Below, piece by piece: positions 6,234-44,998 of a stretch of DNA of 64,000 bases. Origin of the DNA: a virus; UHGV virus genome UHGV-0037280; one strand, written 5' to 3'. The notes below the pieces were generated by a model, which was given only the letters and a program-made list of their open reading frames with translations, was not told the DNA's origin and ran no database searches. Position numbers and translations under genes: made by a program. Every line of letters starts with the position of its first letter. Within the stretch, counting starts at the first letter, position 1.

Positions 6234-8818
6234 AAGAGCTGTGCTATGGATCTGTTTGCAGCGGAATTGAAGCCGCGAGTATTGCCTGGGAACCGTTGGG
6301 TATGCGTCCGGCGTGGTTTGCTGAAATCGAGCCTTTTCCATCTGCCGTTCTTGCGCACCGCTGGCCCCATGTCGCCAACCTTGGCGACATGACAAAACTT
6401 GCCAAAAAAGTCCTGGCTGGGGAAATCGAATCCCCTGATGTGCTCGTCGGGGGTACGCCTTGTCAGGCATTCAGTATCGCGGGCTTACGTGGTGGGCTTG
6501 ATGATGAACGCGGCGCGCTAACTTTGAAGTATGTGGAGCTTGCAAATGCAATTGACGACAAACGGTCTGAGTCCTTCCTCAAACCGACAGTTATCGTCTG
6601 GGAAAATGTCCCAGGAGTCCTGTCATCGGCAGATAACGCCTTCGGATGTTTCCTTGCCGGATTGGCTGGAGAAGATGCGCCATTTGAACCAGGTGATCGA
6701 CCTGAATCAGGAAAAAGTAACGCGTTCTGGCGGTGGGATGGCAAAACCGGTTGCCATGCTCCAAAGTGGCCGCAGTGTGGTTGTATTTATGGACCGCAGC
6801 GAAAGGTGGCCTGGAGAATCCTTGATGCCCAATACTTCGGAGTGGCACAACGACGCCGACGCGTGTTTGTTGTCGCAAGTGCTCGAACAGACCTCGATCC
6901 CGCAACGGTACTTTTTGAGTTCGAAGGCGTGCGCCGGAATATTGCGCCGAGCAGAGGCGAGGGGAAGGAAGTTGCCGGAAATGTTGGAAATGGCATTAAA
7001 AGCGGGAGCCATTGGGATAACCCTGTAAATCCGCACCCGACACTTAACCAGTCACACAATACTGGCGGGATCGGCGCAAGTAACCAGGAGATTTTTGCGC
7101 AGCGCGGAAGTGGGCTTGTTGGTGCTTATCGAATGGTTGCATTTGGCGAATATGCTGATGATGAGACTGCTTCTACTGTCAAGGCCAGAGATTTTAAAGA
7201 TGCAACCGATTTAGCAGTTTTCAGTAGTACTGGTGCTGGTATTTGGCGTGAAGGTGCAGGCACTCTTCGTGCCAGAGCACAAGAAAGTCACGAACATCTG
7301 GCAGTGATGGCTATTCATGGAACACAGGATCCTGATGTTAATTGTGAATTGGCACATACTATTGGTCGTAACCATGGTCAAGAAAATGCAGTCGTAGCTT
7401 TTTCCTGCAAAGATTATGGACAAGATGTTTCTATTGAATGTTCTCCGACTTTACGATCTGGTAATACTGTTAATAGCAATCCAAATGCAGGATGCCCACC
7501 AGCTGTTGCGTATTCGCTACAACATGCACAAATTGGGCGAAAAGATGATGCTGGACCGCAGGGTAAAGGGTGGCAAAAAGAGATAAGTTTCACTCTTGAT
7601 TCCCGCGCTACAGCTGACGCCGTTGCGTTATCTTTTGGGGGGCAGAAAAGTATTGAAAAAGGCGAATTAGGTGATAATGGTTACTTACCTCATATGATGA
7701 GTGTTCGCCGTCTTACCCCTATCGAATGTGAAAGGCTGCAAGGTTTTCCTGATGGGCATACGTTGATCCCGACGGAAAAGCGTAAAAAAGTTAATTCAGA
7801 TGAACTGGTATATCTTCGCAATCACTATCCAGATTTAAGCGAAGAAGAGGCCGCGATGCTTGCAGCTGACGGACCTCGTTACAAAGCGATCGGCAATAGT
7901 ATGGCGATACCAGTAATGCGCTGGATTGGCGATCGGATTACCAAGGCTGCATGTCGGCAGAAGGAAGGGAGTGAAACAAAAGAGCGAAAAGTTAAACCAG
8001 CGGCAGAATTCGAACGGTCCATATTCAAATGGGCTGGTGGAAAATTTGGTGTTCTGGAACAAATCTTTCGCTATTTGCCAGAAGGGAAGCGCCTGATTGA
8101 ACCTTTCGTTGGTGGCGGAGCTGTCTTCATGAATGCCGGATACCAGGAAAATCTGCTAAATGATGTGAATGCTGACCTGATTAACTTTTACAAGACTCTG
8201 CAACGCGAGGCGCATTCACTTATCACTCTGGCACATCGTTTCTTCCAGGACTACAACACGCAGGAAGGATACCTGGCAGTACGGAATGCGTTTAACAAAC
8301 AAGTCTATGATGATTTACATCGCGCAGCGGCGTTTTTGTTCCTGAACCGACATTGTTTTAACGGATTGACGCGTTACAACCAAGCCGGTGAGTTCAATGT
8401 CGGTTATGGGAAGTATAAAACTCCGTATTTCCCATTGCAGGAGATGGAAGCCTTCCTTGGTGCGGAAGGGCGTTCTGAGTTTGTATGTGGTGATTTTGCT
8501 GCGGTGATTGAAGCTGCCGGAGAAGGAGATGTCATCTTTTGCGATCCGCCGTATGAACCGCTCCCAAATACAGAGGGATTCACGAACTATTCCGGTCATG
8601 ACTTTAAGTTTGAAGAGCAAAAACGCCTGGCGTCTCTGTTGACGGATGCTCATCGCCGAGGTGCAAAGGTTCTCATTACTAACAGTGGCGCGCCAAACAT
8701 CAGAGAACTTTATCAGGACAGTGGCTTCAGAGTGGAACCTCTTTTTGCCAGACGTTCTGTGTCTTGTAAGGGGGACACTCGAGGTGTTGCTCATGACGTT
8801 ATAGCAATATTGCTCTAA
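6230..8818 (+). CDS. dmt: Bifunctional-type DNA methyltransferase: N-terminal C5-cytosine MTase-like domain fused to C-terminal Dam-like N6-adenine MTase
   Basis: GTG start overlapping hrdC stop; motifs [12 protein letters not shown] and ENVPG (C5 MTase); FKWAGGK and DPPY (Dam-like) in C-terminal third. Confidence 0.85.
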
Positions 8819-8825
8819 TAAATTT
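8809..8825 (+). promoter_or_regulatory. C1 operator (perfect ATTGCTCTAATAAATTT) overlapping a -35/-10 promoter
   Basis: Exact consensus; TTGCTC at 8811-8816 and TAATAT at 8833-8838 with 16-nt spacing; partial inverted half-site follows. Confidence 0.65.
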
Positions 8826-9002
8826 ATTAGTGTAATATCGCCTCAATGAATCGTGATTTATAGAGCGATTTAGCTGTTAGCCGCGACAGGCGCGGCGGCA
8901 AGTATGGCGGGGTAGTGACTCCTTCCCCCTCATGACGCCGAGTTGCCAGGTTGACCATACGCCTAAGTGGCAACACCGAAGTGCGTTACGAGCTTCCAGT
9001 TT

Positions 9003-9028
9003 GCCCATCTTCGGGTGGGCGTTTTTTT
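9003..9028 (+). terminator. Intrinsic terminator (7-bp GC stem, TTCG loop, T8)
   Basis: gcccatc ttcg ggtgggc followed by gttttttt. Confidence 0.6.
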
Positions 9029-9493
9029 CAGGGTTTTCGTCATGGTTAGCGACTTTGCGGCGGTTTAGAAACTGACCATTAAAGTAAATGCAAACGATGA
9101 TCTGATGATGGTAGCGGCCTAAGAAGCCAGACGCCACGGGGTATGAGTCGTCCCCCGTCAAAAAATCGACCGCAGAGTGTCCCCGTCTGTGTATTAGGGA
9201 ACGGGGAGGCACAACAGGTAAGGGCGCTGGTGTGATTAACCAGATGAACGAGAAGGGGCCATCTGTTGGTCAGCGTCCTTTCCTGTTGCGTCTTCTTTTC
9301 AGCGTAACAGCGGTGCTTAACAGCACTTTGGGTACAGTTCCACGAATTTACGGGTATATCCCGTCATGCTGAAAGCGCTAATCACGCTGGAAGCCAGGGT
9401 TATGCATCCCCTGTTACCGAATTGCAGCCAGGGCGCGGTGCGCCGAAAAGCATACGGAGGTGGAAGCCCTCGCCGGAGACGTACCCGGCAAGT

Positions 9494-9569
9494 GATGGTG
9501 TAGCTCAGCGGTTAGAGCGGTTGACTGTTAATCAACGGGTCGATGGTTCAAATCCATCCACCATCGCCA
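9494..9569 (+). tRNA. tRNA-Asn (anticodon GTT)
   Basis: Cloverleaf by inspection: acceptor gatggtg/caccatc, anticodon stem gttga/tcaac with loop ctGTTaa, T-arm gatgg ttcaaat ccatc, 3' CCA encoded. Confidence 0.9.
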
Positions 9570-9571
9570 AT

Positions 9572-9647
9572 GCCGGTTTAGCTCAGTTGGTAGAGCGCCT
9601 GCCTTGTAAGCAGGATGTCAGCGGTTCGAGTCCGTTAATCGGCACCA
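9572..9647 (+). tRNA. tRNA-Thr (anticodon TGT)
   Basis: Acceptor gccggtt/aatcggc, anticodon stem cctgc/gcagg with loop ctTGTaa, T-loop ttcgagt, CCA encoded. Confidence 0.9.
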
Positions 9648-22442: not shown

Positions 22443-23140
22443 AGATTGCTTTAGTTTTTCGCTCTGGTGGTGACTATAACGCTTCCGATGTGCAGTGGCT
22501 GGTTAATCAACTGCCAAAAGGCTATGAAATTATTTGCCTGACAGACCTGAAGCGTTTACATGTACCTGGCGTCAAAGTTGTCCCATTGATCAACCAGTGG
22601 CAAAAGTGCCGTGGCTGGTGGGCGAAAATCGAGTTGTTCCGACCGGATATAACCGATGATCTGTTCTATCTGGATTTGGACACGGTTATTGCCGGTGATA
22701 TACGCCCAATCCTAGAGCATCCACCAACCAGCTTCACCATGCTTAGGGATTTTTACCATCCACAATATCGTGGCAGCGGTGCCCTGTGGATACCAAATAG
22801 TGTTAAAGCGCATATCTGGAGTTCATTCTGGCAAGATCCGGAAGGTTGGATTTCTCGTTGTGTCACTACTGAGTGCTGGGGTGACCAGGGGTTCTTACGA
22901 AAGGTTATGGGCGATGATATACCAGCATTTCAGGATCTGTATCCAGGATGGTTTGTAAGTTACAAGGCCGATGTTGTGGAACCTGGTTCAAAATATGCGA
23001 GCGCGCGTTACTCCAGGGGGAATGGGGCATTACCAAAAGACTGCCGAATAATCTTTTTCCACGGCAAACCGCGACCTCGCGAAGTGTCAGAGGATTGGCT
23101 TCCCCTTATCAGCTCATTTTTTGAGCGAGAATCAGAATAA
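22439..23140 (+). CDS. Hypothetical protein with DXD-like motif (possible nucleotide-sugar transferase)
   Basis: 233 aa; LDLDTV motif. Confidence 0.45.
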
Positions 23141-23141
23141 T

Positions 23142-23158
23142 ATTGCTCTAATAATTCC
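23142..23158 (+). promoter_or_regulatory. C1 operator (ATTGCTCTAATAATTCC)
   Basis: 14/17 match to consensus; first of an inverted operator pair. Confidence 0.55.
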
Positions 23159-23166
23159 ATATTTTT

Positions 23167-23194
23167 AAAACGTGATGTACACTCATCACGTTTT
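23167..23194. terminator. Perfect 11-bp-stem hairpin with A4/T-run flanks (bidirectional terminator-like)
   Basis: aaaacgtgatg tacact catcacgtttt followed by tttt. Confidence 0.55.
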
Positions 23195-23208
23195 TTATTA
23201 GAGCAATC
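23192..23208 (-). promoter_or_regulatory. C1 operator, inverted relative to 23142
   Basis: ttttttattagagcaat is the reverse complement of ATTGCTCTAATAAAAAA. Confidence 0.55.
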
Positions 23209-23221
23209 TACAAGGTGCACT

Positions 23222-23440
23222 ATGTGGCCATTCCGACGGAAATATCACTACTGGCTGATCGCCTTTGTTACGCCGACCGGCGGTATCAGGCATGTCATCA
23301 CCAGGTATCGCAACAAGAGACTCACCTTAGCCAGAATTTTACAGGCTGCCATAGGTGAGGGACTGGATACAAATTGCGTAGTCCTTCCTCCTTCATACTT
23401 AGGAAAAATGACCGAAGCACAAGCTAATACGGAACTTTGA
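23222..23440 (+). CDS. Small hypothetical protein (72 aa)
   Basis: ORF track only. Confidence 0.35.
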   Translation: MWPFRRKYHYWLIAFVTPTGGIRHVITRYRNKRLTLARILQAAIGEGLDTNCVVLPPSYLGKMTEAQANTEL

Positions 23441-23441
23441 A

Positions 23442-24704
23442 ATGATCACTTCAGCACAAAACCAATCAATCGAAAATGTATCTATCCCTGACGTCCTGAA
23501 TGCCGGTATCCCGGCCATTATCCAGAACATCCGGGCCGCGCAACGCCGCGTTAGTTGTGATGACCTCACAGCGCGTTTTTTTGATAATGCGGTTCAGTCA
23601 GCGGAGATGCTTCACGCACAGCTTATTGATGTTTATAACGCAGAAGCTGATAGCCATAACTCCCTGGTAGATGCAGCTGAAAATATGCAGTTGGATCTCG
23701 GTCTGAAGGGTAAAGAAATTGAAGAGCTTCAGCTACAAATTGAACATTTGAAACGCCAGCAACAGGACGCGATCGACGATGCGACGCATGACGCCAACCA
23801 GCGTGCTGATAATGCCGAACGTATAAGCATTGAGCTGGAAACAAAACTCAATGAAATGACCGCGATGGTTGAACTGCGGAACTCACAGATTTCAACGCTA
23901 AAATCTCAATATAAAGAGATCATGAAACTTGATCCTTTTAACCTTGAGAAACGCTATAACAAAGCTAAAAGCGAGCGACAGGAACTGCGTAAGCAGGTCG
24001 CCGACCTTAACCAACAGCTCAAAAAAACTATTAAAGATGCAAGCGAAGCGCGCGTGGCATTTGCTAATAAAAAAGCAGAGGTTACCGCGCTGGTTAATGA
24101 GAATGCCAAATTTGCGACGCTCAAGAAGGAAATGTATGGCATTACTGAGCGCCGTTTCCCTGCAAGCAAACTTCATCCGACGTTAGGGCAAATCTCCTTC
24201 TTCCCGCGCCTCCTGGCTTATGGGATCTCATCGCCTAAAGAGTTCAATAACGAGCGTCCTTATATCGTTTCTAAGCTGGACTTTGCTTATCAGTTCTGCT
24301 GCGACATGGGCTATGCCATTGATATCCGGATCAACGAATGGTTGATGCCAAACTTCCAGCCGTTGGCCATTTTCCGCGAGTTCCAGCCGGAAGGTTGGGT
24401 AGAGTTCTTCCATGAATTGATCTGTAAAGAGATGGAAAGCCGCCGCCCGGAACTGGTCCGTCGAGTTGAGTGGGCGCAAGAGGTTATGTTGGCAGAGGCA
24501 GAGCTGCCGTTCGAACCGGAATTTATTGATGATCTGGCAGCTAAAGGGCTGCATACCCTGTTTGATGTGGTTACCCGCCGTCATGAGCAGTTGGTTGTCG
24601 AATTGGGTTTAGAGGAAACAGCGGCAAGAAGACTTCTCGATGTTTGCTATGCACGTAGCGATGCATGGGAAAAAGAGAACGGCGGCACTATTTACGTTCG
24701 CTGA
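23442..24704 (+). CDS. Coiled-coil protein (420 aa)
   Basis: ATG 23442; long heptad-like E/Q/K-rich region in N-terminal half. Confidence 0.55.
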   Translation: MITSAQNQSIENVSIPDVLNAGIPAIIQNIRAAQRRVSCDDLTARFFDNAVQSAEMLHAQLIDVYNAEADSHNSLVDAAENMQLDLGLKGKEIEELQLQIEHLKRQQQDAIDDATHDANQRADNAERISIELETKLNEMTAMVELRNSQISTLKSQYKEIMKLDPFNLEKRYNKAKSERQELRKQVADLNQQLKKTIKDASEARVAFANKKAEVTALVNENAKFATLKKEMYGITERRFPASKLHPTLGQISFFPRLLAYGISSPKEFNNERPYIVSKLDFAYQFCCDMGYAIDIRINEWLMPNFQPLAIFREFQPEGWVEFFHELICKEMESRRPELVRRVEWAQEVMLAEAELPFEPEFIDDLAAKGLHTLFDVVTRRHEQLVVELGLEETAARRLLDVCYARSDAWEKENGGTIYVR

Positions 24705-24726
24705 CAGTTACAGTGTCACTTTTAAT

Positions 24727-24757
24727 GCTGGTGGAGTGCGCCCACCAGCATTTTTTC
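24727..24757 (+). terminator. Intrinsic terminator
   Basis: gctggtgg agtgcgc ccaccagc followed by attttttcg. Confidence 0.6.
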
Positions 24758-24775
24758 GTCCAATGAGGAGGGAAT

Positions 24776-25282
24776 TTGAGTATTTTCAATAAACACGCAC
24801 ACCAGGAACGTCCGTATATCGTCATAGTTGATATTGATGGAACAATATCAGAGGCAACTGAAGACAGACTGCATTTGCTTCCGCCACCAGGTAAAGGTGC
24901 ATTAACAAAGGACTGGAACGAGTTTAATCTCGCCTGTGACACTGATACTCCCATAACTCCAGTTATTGATATTGTGCGCCAGTTATTTAACGTTTACACG
25001 GTCTGGTTTGTAACCGGGCGCTGTGAGATCGCAAGGGATAAAACACGAGCCTGGCTGCGGAAGTACGTAACAAACGGGGCTGAGCCTTTGCTATCTATGC
25101 GTCCTGCCACCGATGACAGAAATGACGGCCCAGCAAAGATTGATCTCCTTAAGAAAATTGGTCTAAGTAAAATTGCGTTCGCGCTGGAAGATAAGATTGA
25201 AGTGGCGCGTGTTTTCAGGAGGCACGGCGTGCTTACGTTAATGGTCAGGGAGTATGAAAACGCGCTTCTCCATCAACAATAA
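24776..25282 (+). CDS. HAD-superfamily phosphatase-like protein (TTG start)
   Basis: DxDGT motif VIVDIDGTI near N-terminus; AGGAGG 7 nt upstream of TTG. Confidence 0.55.
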   Translation: MSIFNKHAHQERPYIVIVDIDGTISEATEDRLHLLPPPGKGALTKDWNEFNLACDTDTPITPVIDIVRQLFNVYTVWFVTGRCEIARDKTRAWLRKYVTNGAEPLLSMRPATDDRNDGPAKIDLLKKIGLSKIAFALEDKIEVARVFRRHGVLTLMVREYENALLHQQ

Positions 25283-25298
25283 TTGCTCTAATAAATAT
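25282..25298 (+). promoter_or_regulatory. C1 operator (ATTGCTCTAATAAATAT)
   Basis: 16/17 match to consensus. Confidence 0.6.
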
Positions 25299-25476
25299 TG
25301 ATTTTTAAAGCAGAGGAAGTGAAAATAAAAACATGCCGCAAGGCGCGGCATGTATCCAATCAATCACAGGAGCTGAAAATATGAACACGGCATTCAAAAT
25401 CATTATGGCCGCGATCTATTTCTGGCTGTTCTCTATCACTTTTGGCGGCATCGTCGCACATGGGTAAGGGGGATGC

Positions 25477-26055
25477 ATGAAAGGCGAAGTGAAAGAGCGC
25501 GGCATGATTTTTAACGATGAGATGGTCCGGGCAATTCTTGGCGGGAATAAAACACAGACTCGCAGGATTGTTGAAGAAAAATTCTATGGACGGGCAGTGG
25601 CCGCAGAGTTGCTTGCCAAGCATTGTCCATATGGTCAACCGGGCGATCGTATTTGGGTTCGCGAAACCTACCGGGTACATGGCAAAGCGACGGACGTCGC
25701 AACGCTGGTTTATCGCGCAAGCGTGCGTAACTCCTGGACAGAACAAACGCACCGGGTTCCGGTCGAGGTTTGTAATAAACCAGTATCAGAAAAGTGGACG
25801 CCATCAATTCACATGCCGCGCTGGGCTTCGCGTATTTTGCTGGAAATTACCGACGTGCGTGTGGAACGGCTGCATGACATGAGCGAGGCAGATGCTAAAG
25901 CGGAAGGCGCATCTCCGGCGACGTACAAGATTACACCGCCGGAAGCTGTTTATCGCGTTGGTTTCGGTGATATCTGGCGCGGTATTTACGGGCAAGAGAA
26001 CTGGCTATCTAACCCGTGGGTATGGGTAATCGAGTTTAAGCGCATTCAGGAATAA
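25477..26055 (+). CDS. ASCH/PUA-like domain protein
   Basis: MVRAILGGNKTQTRR N-terminal pattern typical of ASCH-like folds. Confidence 0.45.
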   Translation: MKGEVKERGMIFNDEMVRAILGGNKTQTRRIVEEKFYGRAVAAELLAKHCPYGQPGDRIWVRETYRVHGKATDVATLVYRASVRNSWTEQTHRVPVEVCNKPVSEKWTPSIHMPRWASRILLEITDVRVERLHDMSEADAKAEGASPATYKITPPEAVYRVGFGDIWRGIYGQENWLSNPWVWVIEFKRIQE

Positions 26056-26058
26056 ACC

Positions 26059-26937
26059 GTGAGTATGCATCAAGTTGTCAGCTTTTCAGGTGGACGAACA
26101 TCGGCTTATCTCGTTCATCTGATGGAAGCAAAGCGAAAAGCTGGCGCTAGCGTCCATTTCATTTTTATGGATACCGGCTGTGAACATCCTCTGACGTATC
26201 GCTTTATTCGTGAGGTTGTGAAGTTCTGGAACGTACCGCTAACGGTGTTGCAGGTCGATATAAATCCAGAACTTGGGCAGCCAAATGGTTATACGGAATG
26301 GGAACCAAAGGATATTCAGACGCGAATGCCGGTGCTTAAACCGTTTATGGACATGGTTAAAAAGTACGGTACGCCATACATCGGCGGCGCGTTCTGTACT
26401 GACAGGCTAAAACTCACCCCTTTCACGAAATATTGCGATGACCATTTTGGGCGAGGGAATTACATTACATGGCTGGGTATTCGTGCGGACGAACACCGCA
26501 GGCTGAAACCGAAACCGGGCGTCCGGTATCTTGCAGAGCTGTCAGATTTTGATAAGTCGGATGTTATCCGGTGGTGGCGAAAACAACCTTTTGATTTGCA
26601 AATCCCGGAGCACCTAGGGAACTGTGTTTTTTGCATCAAAAAGTCAACGCAAAAGCTGGGGCTTGCATGTAAAGACGAACCTGGTCTGATGCGGGTTTTT
26701 AATGAACTGGTTACAGGTAAACACGTCCGGGATGGTCACCGAAAGACAAATAAAGACGTTATGTACCGTGGTCATCTGAGCCTTGACGGGATTGCCAGAA
26801 TGTATGCCGACAGCGACTACAGAAATTTGTATCAGGCGATGGTGCAAGCCAGGCGATTCGATACCGGCTCGTGTTCAGAGTCATGTGAAATCTGGGGTGA
26901 TCAATTGGAGTTGAAATTCGAAGAGGTGGTGGCATGA
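26059..26937 (+). CDS. PAPS-reductase-like PP-loop ATP pyrophosphatase family protein
   Basis: SFSGGRTSAYL PP-loop motif at N-terminus; C-terminal Cys cluster CSESCEIWG. Confidence 0.7.
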   Translation: MSMHQVVSFSGGRTSAYLVHLMEAKRKAGASVHFIFMDTGCEHPLTYRFIREVVKFWNVPLTVLQVDINPELGQPNGYTEWEPKDIQTRMPVLKPFMDMVKKYGTPYIGGAFCTDRLKLTPFTKYCDDHFGRGNYITWLGIRADEHRRLKPKPGVRYLAELSDFDKSDVIRWWRKQPFDLQIPEHLGNCVFCIKKSTQKLGLACKDEPGLMRVFNELVTGKHVRDGHRKTNKDVMYRGHLSLDGIARMYADSDYRNLYQAMVQARRFDTGSCSESCEIWGDQLELKFEEVVA

Positions 26938-27638
26938 CAACCAAAATTAACTATCAGGCACTACGTGAGATAGCAAAACAGGCAACACAGGGCGAATGGG
27001 TCGCGTTTATTTCGACGGGTACAGGTACGTATGCTGTGCATACGCCCGGTGATAAACGATGTGAAGATGTTATCAAATGGACCGGCTTTGATGGGCTGAA
27101 AAACGCAGAGAACAACGCTCGTTATGTTGCCGCATTCAACCCAAAGGTTGCACTGGAGCTACTTGGTGAAATTAAGCGCCTGGAGGACACAAATATTGAT
27201 GCTATGTGCCGAATAGCACCGCTTGAGACTAAGCTCGCGGCGCTGGTGGCAGAGAACGCCGGGCTGAAACACGCAATGGCCGTAACTCTTGAGCATGTGT
27301 CGGTCACGGATGCAGGGCAGGCTGGTGTTGCTGCAATGATTATCAACGATGCCCTACACCACAGCGAAACTCCAGCTACCGATGCTTTTCTGGCTGAAAT
27401 TCGTGCGGAAGCACGCAACGAGGGGATTAACTATACCGCCAGCCGTCTTGCTGCTGCGTTCAATCACGGATTTATCAATAAGTCTTTGCGTGAAGTTTTC
27501 GACGTTACACGCATGATTTTGTCAGCGAAAGAAGAGTTGGCTAATGAAGCGCATCCGATTGATGGCCTGTCTGGTGAATATGCGGAGAAATCCCTTGAAG
27601 AATGGGCGGAACAGATTCGCAAAGGAAGCAGCCAGTGA
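26934..27638 (+). CDS. Ead/Ea22-like prophage protein, paralog 1
   Basis: N-terminus INYQALREIAKQATQGEW; shares C-terminal module DAFLAEIRA with 27922 gene. Confidence 0.55.
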   Translation: MTTKINYQALREIAKQATQGEWVAFISTGTGTYAVHTPGDKRCEDVIKWTGFDGLKNAENNARYVAAFNPKVALELLGEIKRLEDTNIDAMCRIAPLETKLAALVAENAGLKHAMAVTLEHVSVTDAGQAGVAAMIINDALHHSETPATDAFLAEIRAEARNEGINYTASRLAAAFNHGFINKSLREVFDVTRMILSAKEELANEAHPIDGLSGEYAEKSLEEWAEQIRKGSSQ

Positions 27639-27925
27639 ATATCGACACGACAATAACGATCGATACGCTCCTAAATACCGGTCTGGCACTTCTCGGTTGG
27701 CTTTACATCATGTCCCGTACATGGCGATGGCTGGGTTCCATTTTCCTAAAACAGTGGAAAAAACGGCGCAAACAGGAACTACGCCAGAAGGCATTAGAAG
27801 CGTTCTATGACGCATTTGAGCTTAGCCGCATTGAACCAGGTACAACAGCCAGGATAGCGACAAAAGGCGACCTGATGATAGTGATGTTCCGACAGGAGAG
27901 AGCAGAGAAAGGGGAATCAGCATGA
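27635..27925 (+). CDS. Small membrane protein (GTG start)
   Basis: AGGAAG 8 nt upstream of GTG overlapping preceding stop; one hydrophobic helix. Confidence 0.4.
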   Translation: MNIDTTITIDTLLNTGLALLGWLYIMSRTWRWLGSIFLKQWKKRRKQELRQKALEAFYDAFELSRIEPGTTARIATKGDLMIVMFRQERAEKGESA

Positions 27926-28590
27926 AATTTTCCAAATTTTCTGAGTTGGTGAATCGTATTTTGTCCAACAACCACAGCCATCGTCGCGATATGGATGTAA
28001 CGATCGTTGTTCATTCGCCTGGCAGCATTGGTTCAACACCCTCAGTTGAAGTTCAGTCAATTCACGCTGGTTTTGATTGGGATTCCGGGAAAGTGCTGAT
28101 TTTCCCAGCACAGCCACTGACCACTCTAACACCAGAACAGATTACTGATATTACTGATATTACTGATAGTGTGCGCAAAGGTCAGTCCTGGCACGCATAT
28201 CAGGAATACAAGAAGCATAAAGAGCAGTTGGAAAAATTATCGATTGAACTTGATGCCGCAAAACAGCGCATTGCAGAGCTGGAGGGTAATTTCACGGCGC
28301 TGGCAGCGGAGAATGCGGGGCTAAAGGCGATATGTGATGACCGTCGCAGGTTCATCATGAATGGGGTGCAGATGGGTTATATCAAGGTGCCAGCAGCGGA
28401 AACAGATCCAGACCTTGAGACAATTCGCATTGCTATATCACCACAAAAGCCCATTCCAGCCACCGATGCTTTCCTGGCTGAAGTACGGGCGCAGGGGGTA
28501 GAGATGTTTGCTGACCATCTGTTGTGCCCAGACCTTGATGACACTATCCGTGACTTTGCTGCCCAGCTTCGCAAAGGAGGCAACCAGTGA
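27922..28590 (+). CDS. Ead/Ea22-like protein, paralog 2 (contains 9-bp x3 tandem repeat)
   Basis: attactgat x3 at 28141-28167 encoding ITDITDITD; coiled-coil segment; shared C-terminal module. Confidence 0.55.
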   Translation: MKFSKFSELVNRILSNNHSHRRDMDVTIVVHSPGSIGSTPSVEVQSIHAGFDWDSGKVLIFPAQPLTTLTPEQITDITDITDSVRKGQSWHAYQEYKKHKEQLEKLSIELDAAKQRIAELEGNFTALAAENAGLKAICDDRRRFIMNGVQMGYIKVPAAETDPDLETIRIAISPQKPIPATDAFLAEVRAQGVEMFADHLLCPDLDDTIRDFAAQLRKGGNQ

Positions 28591-29282
28591 GCAAAATTAA
28601 CTATCAAGAACTGCGCGAGGCGGCGGAGAAGGCTACGAAAGGTAAGTGGGCTGTTGAATTCGACGATGAGATTTACTCCACTGACGGCATAAACCATGAG
28701 CAAATAGCTATGGTGTTCAGTGAAAACGAATCTCGTGATGCTGAATTCATCGCCGCAGCCAATCCGGCTACCGTCTTGGCGCTGCTGGATGAACGGGAAA
28801 GAAACCAGCAATACATAAAACGCCGCGACCAGGAGAACGAGGATATTGCGCTAACGGTAGGGAGGCTTCGCGTTGAGCTGGAAGGCAAAGACAGCAAAAT
28901 AGCCAATCTTACCGCCGAACGCGATGCTCTTCGTGAAGGTGAGATGGGCGACGCTAGGCATAGCAACACACGGGCCGCAGCTGATATCTACTTCCAACTG
29001 GTCGAGGAGTGCGAAATTCCTGCTGGCGGATCTCTGGTCGAGTACGTTGACGATATGCGCGAGAAGCTGGAAGCCGCAGAGAAGCGCATTGCAGAGTTAG
29101 AAAGTGGTTCTCAGGCACAAAAGTTAGTTGAAGCAATCATTGTTGCGATAGAAAACGAACAGGAAAGGCTTTTTGATGAAGATTACCTAATGGATTCGAA
29201 AGAATGCATTGACGTAATTCGTGAAGAAGTAAAGCGATGGAATGATTCCCGTGCCGCTGGCATTCGCATCAAAGGAGAGTGA
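28587..29282 (+). CDS. Ead/Ea22-like protein, paralog 3 (GTG start)
   Basis: N-terminus INYQELREAAEKATKGKW parallels paralog 1; AAGGAGG upstream. Confidence 0.55.
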   Translation: MSKINYQELREAAEKATKGKWAVEFDDEIYSTDGINHEQIAMVFSENESRDAEFIAAANPATVLALLDERERNQQYIKRRDQENEDIALTVGRLRVELEGKDSKIANLTAERDALREGEMGDARHSNTRAAADIYFQLVEECEIPAGGSLVEYVDDMREKLEAAEKRIAELESGSQAQKLVEAIIVAIENEQERLFDEDYLMDSKECIDVIREEVKRWNDSRAAGIRIKGE

Positions 29283-29283
29283 T

Positions 29284-29547
29284 ATGGCAACTTTAACAAA
29301 AAAAGAACGGGCATGGTTGAACGAATTACAGGACGTTCTTGATCGCTGCCCATCACCGAAAAAAATTGGTTTTTACACCATTGGCGATAAAAGCATTTAC
29401 CTGTATGACCTGCGCCGCATGGATGAAATCATGGAGGCTCTTGATAATCGTTCGTCGATGGATTGGTGTGTTGCTGTCCATGATATGAATGCAGGGTTTG
29501 ATGAAAAGATTTTGTTCCCCTCATCAGTTGAAAGCACTGCGGGTTAA
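29284..29547 (+). CDS. Small hypothetical protein (87 aa)
   Basis: ATG with AAGGAG upstream. Confidence 0.45.
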   Translation: MATLTKKERAWLNELQDVLDRCPSPKKIGFYTIGDKSIYLYDLRRMDEIMEALDNRSSMDWCVAVHDMNAGFDEKILFPSSVESTAG

Positions 29548-29557
29548 GGAGTAACAC

Positions 29558-30430
29558 ATGACCACTATTATCAAAGAACGTATTGAATTGTTCATTAAAA
29601 ATCCGCTTGAAAACGGGCTTACTCGTGGCGAACAAATGGAACTGGCACGAATTGCGCTGGCATCGCTGGAAGCAAAACCAATAGGTGCATTCCACATTGC
29701 AGAACAGCAAGTTGACGGCACAAGTGACTACCTCAAGGATGGAGAATGGCCTATTGATAATGGAATTATTGAGGTCTACGCCGCTCCCCCCGTTCCAGTA
29801 GTACCGGAAGAAAAACCAATGCCTAATCCTCTTAGCATGTACGCGGTTGATGCTGTTGCCGCTATTGCAGAGGTGAGAGGCTGGAACGCCTGCCGCGCCG
29901 CCATGCTTCAGTCCGGAAACTTTCGGGAAAACAAGAATTCGTCAACCAATAACTTTCGGGAAATCGCGGAAACGTCAACCAACTATCCGGTAATTCCTAG
30001 TGAGGTGTTGTCCGCAATCCAGAAGGTTGCCAAGATTCGTGCCGATTTCGATGATTTTGACGGTGACAGGCGAGGTATCGGTGATTGTCTGGATGAGGCT
30101 GAGCAAGAGCTTATCGTTACCATTAACAAATATGCCAGTCAGTTGGCAGCAGAACCTATAGCGCCTAATGACGTTCGAGAGCAGACAGCCATTCCGCAAG
30201 TTCCGGTAACTCCGGATGGTTGGATAAGCTGTAGTGAGCGAATGCCGAATACCAAAACAGCCGTTCTTGTTGCCGTGGAGTTTGACAGGAAAGGTGACTG
30301 GCGAATGAAATGGGCTACTTACATCCCGGGGCATCCTGACGCTAATGATGGGTGGATAATTCCTGGTGCGTCGTGGAAACCGTCACACTGGATGCCGCTA
30401 CCAGAACCGCCGCAGGAGGTGAATCAATGA
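29558..30430 (+). CDS. DUF551-type C-terminal domain prophage protein
   Basis: C-terminal W...P..HWMPLPEPP pattern. Confidence 0.55.
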   Translation: MTTIIKERIELFIKNPLENGLTRGEQMELARIALASLEAKPIGAFHIAEQQVDGTSDYLKDGEWPIDNGIIEVYAAPPVPVVPEEKPMPNPLSMYAVDAVAAIAEVRGWNACRAAMLQSGNFRENKNSSTNNFREIAETSTNYPVIPSEVLSAIQKVAKIRADFDDFDGDRRGIGDCLDEAEQELIVTINKYASQLAAEPIAPNDVREQTAIPQVPVTPDGWISCSERMPNTKTAVLVAVEFDRKGDWRMKWATYIPGHPDANDGWIIPGASWKPSHWMPLPEPPQEVNQ

Positions 30431-30512
30431 GCTGGCCTGAAGCATTCGCAACGGTAGGAATTGTGATGGCGGCAGCACTGGGTTTGTATTCAATTTGTTG
30501 CTGGTGGTAACG

Positions 30513-30746
30513 ATGGGGAAATTAACTTTTGTAGTCGAATTTGAGGATGGTAAAGAGCCACCTGTTAGCGCCAATCTTGATGTTGCTGGTGGCAGGCTTG
30601 TTTCGGTTCTATTTGGTGACTACCGAGATGACTTCTTCCAACCAGAAGAAGTTGATGTAGTGCGAGAGGCATTAAACGAGTTAAGTGTTGACAACGCTGA
30701 TGCTCATGCGGAAATCATCCAAAAAATGGAACTGCTAACTCACTAA
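30513..30746 (+). CDS. Small hypothetical protein
   Basis: ORF track, start moved to ATG 30513. Confidence 0.4.
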   Translation: MGKLTFVVEFEDGKEPPVSANLDVAGGRLVSVLFGDYRDDFFQPEEVDVVREALNELSVDNADAHAEIIQKMELLTH

Positions 30747-30924
30747 ATTAGCAATTATGGTGCTATCACCTACGGCAACGAGAGAAATTTTATAATGTTA
30801 AAAGTAAATGTTTTGATTTTTTCAGTAATTGTAGGTTTTGGTTTTTCTGCTGGAGTACATATTTATATTACGTGGGGAAAAATCATCAACTACGTATGGG
30901 GTTGTTTTATTAAGTGAGGTAAGT

Positions 30925-31218
30925 ATGTGGAGAGGTAATAGTCATGGCAAAAGCCAGATGATACTTACCGAATATCAGTTTGACCATAAAACCAATAAAT
31001 CACGTTCAGTATATTTGCTTCGGCACAATAGCCGCGTAAGGAATACCGTGCTGGAGCAAAATCTGACTGTTGAAATGGATAATTACGGGGGCTTCAAGCC
31101 AACAATTTCGCTTGATGATTTTCCTCGTGGTTTAAGCGAAAGAGAAGCAATGCTGAAATTGGCAGAATGGCTACAAAGATTAAGCATTGCTATTGAAGAT
31201 AACTGGTCTGAACCTTAA
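30925..31218 (+). CDS. Hypothetical protein in AT-rich segment
   Basis: ATG 30925 with GTGAGG upstream. Confidence 0.4.
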   Translation: MWRGNSHGKSQMILTEYQFDHKTNKSRSVYLLRHNSRVRNTVLEQNLTVEMDNYGGFKPTISLDDFPRGLSEREAMLKLAEWLQRLSIAIEDNWSEP

Positions 31219-31224
31219 ATTTAT

Positions 31225-31584
31225 ATGATGACACTAAAACATTTTCTTGACCGCCCATTATGGGCGGCAGCCGCAGGCTATGACTTTAATTATATGGATT
31301 GCATGTCTTATACCGCCAATGCATACGACCATTCCTTCAGTCTGCTGTTTAATTCTTTAAGAATATTGCCGCAAACAGAAGTTGGAGAGCTTCATTTATG
31401 GCTATTGGGCTTTATCGCGGCTGGAGTTGGTATTGCTGTATGGCCTTTTATTTTCTGGCTGGTGGCTGTTGTAGTGTGGTTTAAGTGCAAGACATACCGG
31501 AGAAAGTATTTCTTAGGTGATGGAATGACTGATATTGCCAAAATGAACATTGAAAAATGGACTAAGGAATGTGAAAAGAAATGA
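31225..31584 (+). CDS. Membrane protein (119 aa)
   Basis: Hydrophobic segment LWLLGFIAAGVGIAVWPFIFWLVAVVVW. Confidence 0.45.
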   Translation: MMTLKHFLDRPLWAAAAGYDFNYMDCMSYTANAYDHSFSLLFNSLRILPQTEVGELHLWLLGFIAAGVGIAVWPFIFWLVAVVVWFKCKTYRRKYFLGDGMTDIAKMNIEKWTKECEKK

Positions 31585-32063
31585 CCAGAATCACTGAAGA
31601 ACGCATATCGGAGATTATCGCCCGTATTGAAATGTATGGTCACGGTGCTGGATATACGGCAGATAAAGTATTGGAAATAGCCCAGCAGATGCTGGCCTTG
31701 AGACAAAAAGAGCAACATGAAAGTAATACATGTAGATTGAATTTTGAGCAGTGGCTGGAACAGCAACGCGGAAAAATCGATGTGGACTGTGGTTGTGTGT
31801 CCACTGAAACATTCATGCACTGGTTGCGGGTAGCTTACGAGGCTGGCAACTATCCGGATAGTTCGGAGCAAGCGCCAGGAAATGGCGTCCCCGGCGAACG
31901 TATACGAATTAAGCCGCATGTTTACCGCGAACTGGTTAACCGTCTCCACGATACAGCTATCAAGTGTGCTGGCACCCAGCAATTACGAGAAAGAATTAGC
32001 CGTGTTTTGGGCGACGTTATTACGCCAGATCATCATAAACAAGCCGAGAAAAGTGGCCTGTAA
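31581..32063 (+). CDS. Hypothetical protein (160 aa), translationally coupled to the membrane protein
   Basis: ATGA overlap with upstream gene. Confidence 0.5.
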   Translation: MTRITEERISEIIARIEMYGHGAGYTADKVLEIAQQMLALRQKEQHESNTCRLNFEQWLEQQRGKIDVDCGCVSTETFMHWLRVAYEAGNYPDSSEQAPGNGVPGERIRIKPHVYRELVNRLHDTAIKCAGTQQLRERISRVLGDVITPDHHKQAEKSGL

Positions 32064-32270
32064 AGGTGTCACCTTGAGGCGGCATTAAACATTAACCCGG
32101 GGCATACGCTTGGCATTATTGATGCACTATTGGTTCATAAGATGGCCAGGGCTTTATTGCCGCTGGTAGGGGGCAATGACAACTAGGAAAAAATCGCATT
32201 ACTGGTGGCAAAGCCATAACTACTGATACAATATTTCTAGGTTAAAGATCTGGCATTAGGTAGAGATAGC

Positions 32271-32735
32271 ATGTTTCTTCATATCAATCCCGATTGGGCA
32301 TCAGCTATTGCGGCATTTGGGTCAGCAATAGCTGCTTTTATTAGTTTGCGCACAAGTAAAAAGCTTGGATTATTCGATAAGGAAAAATTTTATAGTGAAG
32401 CATTGATAAACTTTGCTGATAGGGCAAATAAAATAGCAACAGGAAAAGCTGGATCAGACTGGGATGTTAATGACGCAAGTAATATAATTCTTTCACTAAA
32501 TGCCGCAAAAGAAACTATTGAAAGTGCGCCAAAACCTATTCGAGAGCAACTAAAACAATATTACAAACATAATCTTTGCCATGAGATCATAACCGAATTA
32601 GAGGCTCACTCTCCCCCAGATTCAGTAATTGTAAGAGAACCATCAGAGTATGAAGGCAAGATCATGGGATTGTGGGATGAGATTAAAATATTTCTGGGTT
32701 ATACAGTGGTATCAGAAGCAGACCTTGAAGATTAA
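32271..32735 (+). CDS. AT-rich gene encoding membrane-anchored protein (154 aa)
   Basis: N-terminal hydrophobic helix WASAIAAFGSAIAAFISL; markedly AT-rich codon usage. Confidence 0.5.
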   Translation: MFLHINPDWASAIAAFGSAIAAFISLRTSKKLGLFDKEKFYSEALINFADRANKIATGKAGSDWDVNDASNIILSLNAAKETIESAPKPIREQLKQYYKHNLCHEIITELEAHSPPDSVIVREPSEYEGKIMGLWDEIKIFLGYTVVSEADLED

Positions 32736-32837
32736 AGTTTGGTGTGACCACATCATTTCATCAATGATGCCCGAAGTGGGGAGTTTGACGATTGTCCGGT
32801 GATTTAAGCTGCAAAGTGCTGGTGCTTTATGCTTGTG

Positions 32838-32872
32838 AAGTTTATAATTGTGTACACATAACGAGTACACGA
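32838..32872 (+). promoter_or_regulatory. phd-doc promoter/operator region
   Basis: TATAAT at 32843-32848 followed by GTGTACAC (32850-32857) and GAGTACAC (32864-32870). Confidence 0.55.
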
Positions 32873-32879
32873 GGTGTTT

Positions 32880-33101
32880 ATGCAATCCATTAACTTCCGT
32901 ACCGCACGCGGCAACCTTAGCGAAGTGCTCAATAATGTTGAAGCAGGGGAAGAGGTTGAAATCACCCGCAGAGGCCGTGAATCAGCCGTAATTGTCAGCA
33001 AGGCCACTTTCGAAGCCTATAAAAAAGCGGCGCTGGATGCCGAATTTGCATCCCTGTTTGACACTCTGGACTCCACTAACAAGGAACTGGTTAACCGATA
33101 A
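32880..33101 (+). CDS. phd: Phd antitoxin
   Basis: [73 protein letters not shown] matches P1 Phd as I recall it. Confidence 0.9.
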
Positions 33102-33481
33102 TGAGGCATATATCACCGGAAGAACTTATTGCGCTTCATGATGCGAATATAAGCCGCTACGGCGGCCTGCCGGGCATGTCAGATCCGGGCAGGGCAGAAG
33201 CCATTATCGGGAGAGTTCAGGCCAGAGTTGCCTACGAAGAGATCACCGACCTTTTCGAAGTCTCCGCCACCTACCTGGTGGCTACAGCGAGAGGGCATAT
33301 ATTCAATGATGCCAATAAGCGTACCGCGCTAAACAGTGCGCTGTTATTTCTACGCCGTAACGGGGTGCAGGTATTTGATTCACCTGAACTGGCAGACCTT
33401 ACCGTAGGCGCTGCGACTGGCGAGATATCTGTATCTTCTGTCGCCGACACGTTACGTAGATTGTATGGTTCTGCGGAGTAG
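33101..33481 (+). CDS. doc: Doc toxin (Fic-fold kinase)
   Basis: Start overlaps phd stop; Fic motif [13 protein letters not shown]. Confidence 0.9.
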
Positions 33482-33485
33482 ATTA

Positions 33486-33665
33486 ATGGCACGTAAATAC
33501 AACAAGTTGTCCCGTGAAGCGTTAAAGATGCTTCTTGATGGCGTGAGCCGCCGCAAGGTAAAGCAATACCTGGTTGGTAAGCAAATTGGAGTCAGGACCG
33601 CTATTGCTGTGTTATGCCGTCAGGAAATGGTTGTGCTTAAACAGAGAATGCCGGGCAGCAGATAA
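33486..33665 (+). CDS. Small basic protein downstream of doc
   Basis: ATG 33486; 59 aa. Confidence 0.4.
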   Translation: MARKYNKLSREALKMLLDGVSRRKVKQYLVGKQIGVRTAIAVLCRQEMVVLKQRMPGSR

Positions 33666-38060: not shown

Positions 38061-38190
38061 GTGATTTTTGACTGCCGATGTTACATTGAACCTGACATCT
38101 TGCGCCTTGAGGCATTTTCGGTTTATGCTTATCAGGCACCTCATTAAAACGGGTGCCGGGATTGAGACCCCGGATAATGTCAAAGGCGAC

Positions 38191-38216
38191 ACAGACGCCG
38201 AAAGCGTCTTTTTTTT
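38191..38216 (+). terminator. Intrinsic terminator (stem gacgc/gcgtc, T8)
   Basis: gacgc cgaaa gcgtc followed by tttttttt. Confidence 0.55.
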
Positions 38217-38265
38217 GTGTCATGCCATCGCACAGCCATACGTAGCGTTTAGCTCAGAGATCAAT

Positions 38266-38345
38266 GGTAGTGCTGGCTGGGCTGCCGAAAGGCAGGCCGG
38301 TTCCCTTTGACGCCGGTAGTCTCAACCCAGTCAGTGCTACCGCCA
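38266..38345 (+). ncRNA. Candidate c4-like antisense RNA of immunity module 1 (tRNA-like end ACCGCCA)
   Basis: 10-bp terminal stem ggtagtgctg/cagtgctacc followed by GCCA; internal cctttgac (38304-38311) is perfectly complementary to gtcaaagg (38383-38390) overlapping the icd SD. Confidence 0.4.
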
Positions 38346-38401
38346 TTGAGATTGAGACCTCACGCGGTAGCTCCTTAACTTAGTCAAAGGAGGCTGCCAT
38401 T

Positions 38402-44719: not shown

Positions 44720-44790
44720 CGCTGCTAAACAGGTGGCAGGACGTGACGGGGTTAGCAGACTGGCGTTAGTGAAACCAGCAGGCCGAAGCC
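44720..44790 (-). ncRNA. Candidate c4-like antisense RNA of module 2
   Basis: Minus-strand segment tcactaac (plus-strand gttagtga 44765-44772) is perfectly complementary to the SD-containing leader (plus-strand 44692-44699) of the second icd copy; boundaries approximate. Confidence 0.3.
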
Positions 44791-44998
44791 TCCCCATCAC
44801 GCCCCACCATAATTTGGGCGTAACGCGGTTTTACGGACACAAAAATACCGCAATATCGGATATCTGCGGTTGTCCACACTAACATTCAGGCTGCTAAACC
44901 CGGTCGCAGAATTTGCTACGACGTAGGAACTATAAGCCTGAACAACAGGAAGATCAATAGTCTGGCGTCCAATAGTAGTTTATTTGTTTCAATAAATC

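Follow-up and report, generated by a model that had tools for sequence, protein, structure and literature searches.

DicF, long DicF and the ban operon leader

The small RNA (sRNA) DicF of the Qin prophage has been detected by Northern blotting and primer extension in two forms, one of 53 nucleotides (nt) with a 5′ end that depends on ribonuclease (RNase) E, and one of 190 nt (long DicF) with a 5′ end that depends on RNase III (Ragunathan et al. 2023, PMC10448788). The prominent Qin species that end at the DicF terminator comprise these two RNAs and a 1,146-nt ydfABC-dicF transcript, and read-through RNA was also seen (PMC10448788). The 53-nt form ends at the DicF terminator (Balasubramanian et al.), and both forms are taken here to end there. 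The present analysis concerns a 64,000-nt stretch of viral DNA, UHGV virus genome UHGV-0037280 (the window, numbered from its first letter), and in it the interval at 8809-9028 between the gene dmt and the first tRNA genes. This interval contains a structured RNA domain that is homologous to the segment upstream of DicF, and it is this content of the interval that is new. The sequence of the 190-nt region printed in Figure S1 of PMC10448788 is the same conserved block.

The region is 97-98% identical to P1, P7 and related plasmid prophages, and 100% identical to one E. coli plasmid. The open reading frame (ORF) that ends at 8818 is dmt, and the operator and promoter described below follow dmt and precede tRNA-Asn and tRNA-Thr. 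P1 positions 68667-68696 map to window 8809-8838 without any difference in a pairwise alignment, and at the aligned positions the P1 GenBank record describes a 'divalent C1-controlled operator Obanab; corresponds to former Op72ab; controls expression of ban'. The record also has a 'sigma 70 promoter P1ban' and, since deposition, a 'dicF-like region'. On window coordinates these annotations cover 8809-8836 (operator), 8810-8838 (promoter) and 8936-9038 (dicF-like region). The P7 record places Op(ban) and Op(ban[b]) at the same location and states that they regulate the tRNA genes. The operator, the promoter, the C1 control and the 'dicF-like' label are prior knowledge and no discovery of this work. 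The ban operon annotated in P1 and P7 comprises tRNA genes, tciABC, tRNA-Ile and ban, and the interval lies between dmt and these genes; it probably represents, in a plasmid prophage of the P1/P7 type, the promoter-proximal and non-coding leader of a ban operon repressed by C1.

A conserved RNA domain

Window ~8864-8978 corresponds to a conserved RNA domain of ~115 nt with four helices and a pseudoknot, and with compensatory changes in its pairs. Homologues were collected from IMG/VR, GenBank phages and E. coli genomes, on which the domain diversity described here rests; they amount to 91 unique loci, from which 69 distinct sequences were aligned with MAFFT. The structure read off this alignment (closing helix, PA, PB, PC and the pseudoknot) pairs 95.2% of the cells, as against only 30-59% in slid controls with partners shifted by 1-3 columns. 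Doubly changed cells number 25, compared with 4.1 ± 1.9 in column shuffles, none of which (0 of 500) reached 25. RNAalifold independently adds a 4-bp helix, P2, with the sequence CGGU/ACCG, or CGGC/GCCG in the P7 lineage. When the sequences are realigned to a covariance model that includes P2 and the pseudoknot, 96.8% of the cells are paired and 8 pairs are compensatory (0 of 500 shuffles); this second alignment is fitted to the model, and the unfitted MAFFT alignment agrees with it. The family covariance model scores the window at 107 bits (E ~4e-32), and the window forms helices PA, P2, PB and PC and the pseudoknot. The elements of the domain in the window are as follows.

8881-8895, plus strand: helix PA, CCGCG-ACAGG-CGCGG; 96.5% of cells paired, without compensatory change.
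8896-8940, plus strand: helix P2, CGGC (8896-8899) with GCCG (8937-8940), found by RNAalifold; encloses the 5′ strand of the pseudoknot and PB.
8902-8960, plus strand: pseudoknot, GTATGG (8902-8907) with CCATAC (8955-8960) in the PC loop; 99.3% paired.
8909-8928, plus strand: variable hairpin PB (GGGG/CCCC) with the CU-rich loop UAGUGACUCCUU; 3 of 5 pairs changed on both sides.
8942-8974, plus strand: helix PC (GTTGCCA/TGGCAAC) with the near-invariant 19-nt loop GGTTGACCATACGCCTAAG; pair 110:134 has 62 rows with U-A and 6 with C-G.

Compensatory exchange is also seen in P2, where 64 rows have U-A at a pair for which the P7 lineage has C-G, and in the pseudoknot, where one pair is U-A in 62 rows, C-G in 3 and U-G in 3. 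The stem of PB depends on the lineage in sequence and length, and its pairing and a UCCU-type loop are retained in the variants inspected. The window carries the P7 allele of the domain, with 100% identity over 8870-8990; its identity to the P1 allele is 83.7%. The 16% divergence between these two alleles in the domain is compensatory: PB reads CUGGG/CCCAG in P1 against GGGG/CCCC in P7, P2 is changed on both sides, and the pseudoknot is GCAUGG/CCAUGC in P1 (GCATGG/CCATGC in the DNA) and GUAUGG/CCAUAC in P7. Such changes between P1 and P7 argue for selection on the fold within the P1/P7 lineage. The lambdoid copies have in addition a closing helix, GUUGUGGC/GCUGCAAC, which covaries.

Two motifs were observed alongside the fold. 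The PB loop (window 8913-8924 and homologues) is CU-rich and anti-Shine-Dalgarno-like (CUCCUU, UCCUCC, UUCCUU) in the lineages inspected, with stems and loop lengths that vary. The lambdoid copies carry a near-invariant GUGC(G/U)CU ~10 nt upstream of the closing helix (alignment columns 30-36; ~2468-2474 in the Qin locus, L003). By eye this motif resembles the boxA core (UGCUCUUUA); it is missing in P1/P7.

The search for a known non-coding RNA family that the first-pass annotation had suggested for the interval drew a blank. Rfam 15 at gathering thresholds on the whole window found the tRNAs and no family in the interval, and the domain belongs to none; at E values up to 10 on 8700-9800, Rfam 15 gave weak matches to CcsR1, RyhB, tmRNA and nuoG, all far below threshold. 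A full-text literature search for the sequence motifs of the domain gave no match.

Distribution and variable downstream modules

A sensitive blastn search with 8826-9040 as the query against 5,426 complete E. coli genomes matched window 8881-8978 to chromosomal prophages in 4412 of them (~82% identity over 98 nt, E ~1e-16). In K-12 the matching sequence falls between ydfC and dicB of Qin and ends ~25 nt before DicF; in the coordinates of L003 the homologous block occupies 2501-2597 and Rfam DicF 2622-2673. The domain is also present in functional lambdoid phages, namely mEp460, cdtI and Stx2c phages. Homology stops sharply at both edges of the domain. The sequences that follow it in the 91 loci form 25 classes, and by inspection all 25 show the same order of short linker, variable single-stranded stretch with U's at its end, GC-rich hairpin and T-run; among them are canonical DicF, several variants of DicF and the P1/P7 type. 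A scan of genome contigs with CAGGTTGACCATNCGC returned matches that were nearly all at chance level and from unrelated phyla.

Phage D6 has the same terminator and downstream region as P1 and P7, preceded by a wholly different leader that lacks the domain. In this phage (L250, 760-1500) ~700 nt of unrelated non-coding sequence, with long hairpins by eye, replaces the operator and the domain; the spacer and tRNA genes are the same, with an extra tRNA-Ser downstream. Actinobacillus phage vB_Apl-pPE4 (L247, 2480-2760) has the domain without the 5′ closing strand, followed by a tandem duplication of the linker/sRNA/terminator module. The Stx2c phage LC727876 (L252, 4644-5310) presents, in order, the cI terminator, a PL-like promoter TTGACA-16-CATAAT (11/12), a 285-nt untranslated leader, the domain, a DicF-variant terminator and the first ORF, and no N-like ORF occurs before the first terminator of this leftward operon.

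Operator, promoter and predicted transcript

As judged by identity with the annotated sites, the promoter at the head of the interval is the C1-controlled Op72ab/P1ban of P1 and Op(ban) of P7; C1 repression and an in vivo start at P1ban would follow from the P1 annotation. The following features were assigned.

8809-8825, plus strand: C1 operator half-site (P1 Obana, former Op72a), the perfect 17-mer ATTGCTCTAATAAATTT; aligned with the P1 protein_bind feature.
8820-8836, minus strand: inverted C1 operator half-site 2 (Obanb, Op72b) with 2 mismatches; its 6-bp overlap with half-site 1 makes a bivalent operator.
8810-8838, plus strand: sigma-70 promoter P1ban, with −35 TTGCTC (8810-8815), a 17-nt spacer and −10 TAATAT (8833-8838).

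The first-pass annotation had described a perfect C1 operator that overlaps a promoter, and the operator stands as described: the 17-bp asymmetric site has 0 mismatches to the C1 operator consensus. The −10 hexamer was also placed correctly; the −35 hexamer begins at 8810 and not 8811 (8811-8816 had been given), which makes the spacer 17 nt long and not 16. The inverted second site at 8820-8836 had been overlooked. C1-like sites with up to 3 mismatches number 16 in the window, against 0.24 expected by chance (reached in 0 of 100 shuffles), and the C1 operators of the window are therefore considered real. The operator at P1ban spans both hexamers, with half-site 2 covering the −10. The promoter serves the whole ban operon and not a small RNA alone, and since P1ban is the promoter of the whole operon, read-through of the terminator at the end of the interval must occur. 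The RNA features outside the domain are these.

8845-9028, plus strand: predicted primary transcript of ~184 nt, from a putative start ~7 nt past the −10 to the U-run of the terminator; counterpart of the 190-nt long DicF.
8847-8871, plus strand: 5′-terminal hairpin UGAAUCGU / AGCGAUUU, −7.0 kcal/mol; specific to the P1/P7 lineage.
8975-9002, plus strand: linker and candidate seed region, with a U-rich end (CCAGUUU) beside the terminator; without detectable DicF homology.
9003-9028, plus strand: intrinsic terminator with a 7-bp GC-rich stem, a UUCG loop, and G + U7; conserved in P1, P7, SJ46 and D6.

The strong terminator noted previously was recovered by a terminator scan. Its stem, GCCCATC/GGTGGGC (9003-9020), closes a TTCG loop and is followed by G and T7 at 9022-9028; the hairpin folds at −12.8 kcal/mol and begins 158 nt past the putative start and 28 nt past helix PC. 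The interval is non-coding, in agreement with the first reading. Plus-strand ORFs at 8932, 8951 and 8967 lack a Shine-Dalgarno sequence, the ATG at 8932 is missing in P1, and the minus-strand ORF at 8877-9212 exists.

A discrete RNA of ~184 nt that ends at 9028 is likely, because the interval shares homology with the 5′ portion of the Northern-detected 190-nt long DicF. The two functions offered in the first-pass annotation, a repressor-controlled small RNA or a leader/attenuator of the tRNA operon, are each borne out in part. For the small RNA, the C1-controlled promoter, the non-coding interval and the homology to long DicF agree with the proposal, but the promoter is not dedicated to it. 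For the leader, the annotated ban operon with its tRNAs fits, but attenuator-type alternative pairing was not found: by inspection, without a systematic search, there is only an imperfect pairing of CUGUUAUC with GGUAUCAG in the Qin lineage and none in P1/P7.

Comparison with the DicF RNAs

The predicted P1/P7 RNA shares with long DicF the 5′ domain of ~115 nt, at ~82% identity and with the same helices maintained by compensatory changes, and the overall order of domain, short linker, U-rich stretch and intrinsic terminator, within ~184 nt as compared with 190 nt. Both belong to an early operon under phage repressor control. The two differ in how the 5′ end would arise. In Qin it is cut by RNase III from a polycistronic RNA, whereas in P1/P7 the promoter lies ~35 nt upstream of the domain, which suggests a primary transcript. 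In addition, P1/P7 have no recognisable closing helix, and their 3′ module is unrelated to DicF. Relative to the DicF sRNA itself (RF00039), this module occupies the same position with respect to the domain and has the same Hfq-type 3′ layout, in which a U-rich stretch precedes a terminator hairpin with a U tail. In contrast to DicF, the P1/P7 terminator has a 4-nt UUCG loop and lacks the loop/3′ region through which DicF pairs with ftsZ.

Orthology of the 3′ module to DicF was considered and rejected. RF00039 has no match at E values up to 10 on 8700-9800 (gathering threshold 48 bits), the Qin control scores 76.7 bits, and the terminator differs. Local alignment of the P1/P7 module with the Qin linker and DicF is not significant (p ~0.07). 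In RNAduplex the P7 module pairs with ftsZ (−70 to +45) more weakly than 80% of shuffles do, in a test of low power in which genuine DicF is also unremarkable (p = 0.17). Going by these sequence comparisons, the P1/P7 RNA is not a DicF orthologue, because the domain is shared and the 3′ module is different. It would be best filed as an RNA of the long-DicF kind with a different 3′ module, and it probably has targets other than those of DicF.

Proposed mechanism

In a lysogen, C1 bound to the bivalent operator at 8809-8836 would occlude both hexamers and keep the promoter off, as is known for P1 and as the exact match to the sites annotated there suggests. On loss of C1, through induction or infection, RNA polymerase would start near 8845 and transcribe, in order, the 5′ hairpin, the pseudoknotted ~115-nt domain, a short single-stranded U-rich stretch and the terminator at 9003-9028. 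Most transcripts would presumably end at 9028 and yield a stable ~184-nt RNA with the 3′ architecture of an Hfq-type sRNA, and the fraction that reads through would supply the tRNAs, TciABC and the Ban helicase. A mostly terminated ~184-nt RNA is supported by Qin, where the species that end at the DicF terminator are prominent in vivo and read-through is also seen. It is considered reasonably probable that loss of C1 leads to a terminated sRNA of ~184 nt with partial read-through into the tRNAs and ban.

A number of results weigh against this proposal. P1ban was not called by a generic promoter scan, although it aligns exactly with the annotated promoter, and its hexamers match 7 of 12 consensus positions by manual count, which is weak by consensus. 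The fold energy of the whole 186-nt segment is unexceptional (z = −1.58). The closing helix is gapped or unpaired in the P1/P7 rows, for which only a 4-bp AGCU/AGCU helix is predicted. A search for targets within the 64-kb window gave only matches of 10-11 nt, all inside ORFs and at chance level, and no target was found for the RNA, with no ftsZ complementarity in the low-power RNAduplex test. No Northern, rapid amplification of cDNA ends, Term-seq or RNA-seq evidence of a short RNA in P1/P7 was found in the literature, and two P1vir transcriptome studies do not mention one. Read-through could be large, because ban starts ~2.6 kb 3′ of P1ban, and the short RNA would then be a minor by-product.

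Alternative explanations

The domain could instead be a cis-acting read-through element, either a processive antiterminator that is HK022 put-like or Nus-dependent, or a riboswitch-like sensor, with the short RNA as its by-product. HK022 put is likewise a structured RNA between an early repressor-controlled promoter and the first terminator, with no N-like gene ahead. The domain always directly precedes an early operon's first intrinsic terminator, with all genes beyond it; P1/P7 show the order promoter, domain, terminator, tRNAs and ban, and the Stx2c phage has a PL-like promoter, leader, domain and terminator with no N-like ORF ahead. Transcriptional riboswitches are laid out in this way, with a conserved 'aptamer-like' core and then a variable terminator, and the near-invariant 19-nt loop and the pseudoknot suggest binding by a conserved macromolecule. 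However, put consists of two stem-loops of ~70 nt with a triplex, unlike the four helices and pseudoknot of the domain. Homology to put was rejected: the 9-mer GCGCGGCGG is shared with putL by eye, and the covariance model of the domain has no match at E values up to 10 in the putL and putR regions (HK022 22000-33500, which covers both put sites). The prominence of transcripts that end at the Qin DicF terminator would be unexpected after an efficient antiterminator, no consistent pairing of the domain or linker with the 5′ strand of the terminator was seen by inspection across the variant classes, and D6 retains the terminator and downstream region without the domain. A read-through element is regarded as unlikely on this evidence. 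A related idea, put forward only tentatively, is that the domain is a functional RNA element in its own right, common to lambdoid and P1/P7 prophages and previously unrecognised, for which DicF and the P1/P7 RNA are 'cargo' modules. Such an element may govern passage of the terminator by binding a host factor (RNA polymerase, a Nus factor, the ribosome or some other), or may act independently of the sRNA module.

It appears quite improbable that the domain is a mere scaffold for processing or stability, which would provide the structure for entry of, or protection from, RNase III and RNase E in the 3′ untranslated region (3′UTR) of ydfC, and which P1/P7 would have acquired by recombination from a lambdoid prophage without a function of its own there. 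RNase III does generate the 5′ end of the 190-nt Qin RNA, and RNase E cuts between the domain and DicF to give the 53-nt form; P1/P7 lack a covarying closing helix; their promoter lies near the estimated RNase III 5′ end of Qin (190 nt back from the DicF 3′ end); and the abrupt homology edges are those expected of a recombined module. Against this, the P1 and P7 alleles, 16% apart, have preserved every helix, with PB, P2 and the pseudoknot changed in a compensatory manner, and the PC loop and the CU-rich PB loop are conserved far beyond the needs of nuclease entry. Protein coding was also weighed, as an antisense ORF of 111 codons exists at 8877-9212 and hypothetical proteins have been placed on the homologous block in several phage records. 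PB, however, varies in length by non-multiples of three with pairing kept, the substitutions are compensatory for RNA helices, the annotated ORFs are on different strands and in different frames between records, and homology ends inside the ORF. The pattern of insertions and deletions, together with the RNA-type covariation, excludes coding for practical purposes.

Downstream region and other RNA elements of the window

The DNA that read-through transcripts would enter is summarised in one line.

9029-9647, plus strand: read-through context, with a 465-nt structured spacer, tRNA-Asn (9494-9569) and tRNA-Thr (9572-9647); the same operon in the P1/P7 annotations.

The spacer (9029-9493) folds at −181 kcal/mol (z = −4.2, 0 of 100 shuffles) and is conserved in phage D6 despite its other leader. 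The exact 15-mer CACAACAGGTAAGGG has 3 plus-strand copies (9210-9224, 9649-9663 and 9864-9878; 0.07 expected), one upstream and two downstream of the tRNA-Asn/Thr pair, with the 9210 copy at the foot of a predicted long hairpin. The tRNA at 11648-11723 was called tRNA-Met (CAT) by ARAGORN; its homologue in the P1 record is tRNA-Ile2, read as Ile after lysidine modification. Elsewhere in the window, C4 antisense RNA is found in two copies of opposite orientation, at 38136-38347 (plus strand) and 44729-44935 (minus strand), which score 75 and 70 bits. One copy adjoins isrK and the other has a c4-a1b1 target element. P1 presumably has a single c4/immI region, and an element with two C4 copies may carry a second immunity or antirepressor module.

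Implications

For the biology of P1, the arrangement places a strong terminator 185 nt past the promoter, ahead of the helicase and tRNA genes, so that the first product of the ban operon would be a structured RNA and not a protein. In that case P1 would produce, early and under repressor control, an RNA related to the precursor of DicF, an inhibitor of host cell division. DicF has so far been treated as a simple 3′UTR-derived sRNA. The 190-nt form carries a conserved, covarying and pseudoknotted domain that is more conserved than DicF itself, is swapped between sRNA/terminator modules and is present in two unrelated phage types. The domain provides a concrete object for asking what the role of long DicF is, and it also bears on how polymerase reads through early operons in which a terminator comes first, with no N-like gene before it.

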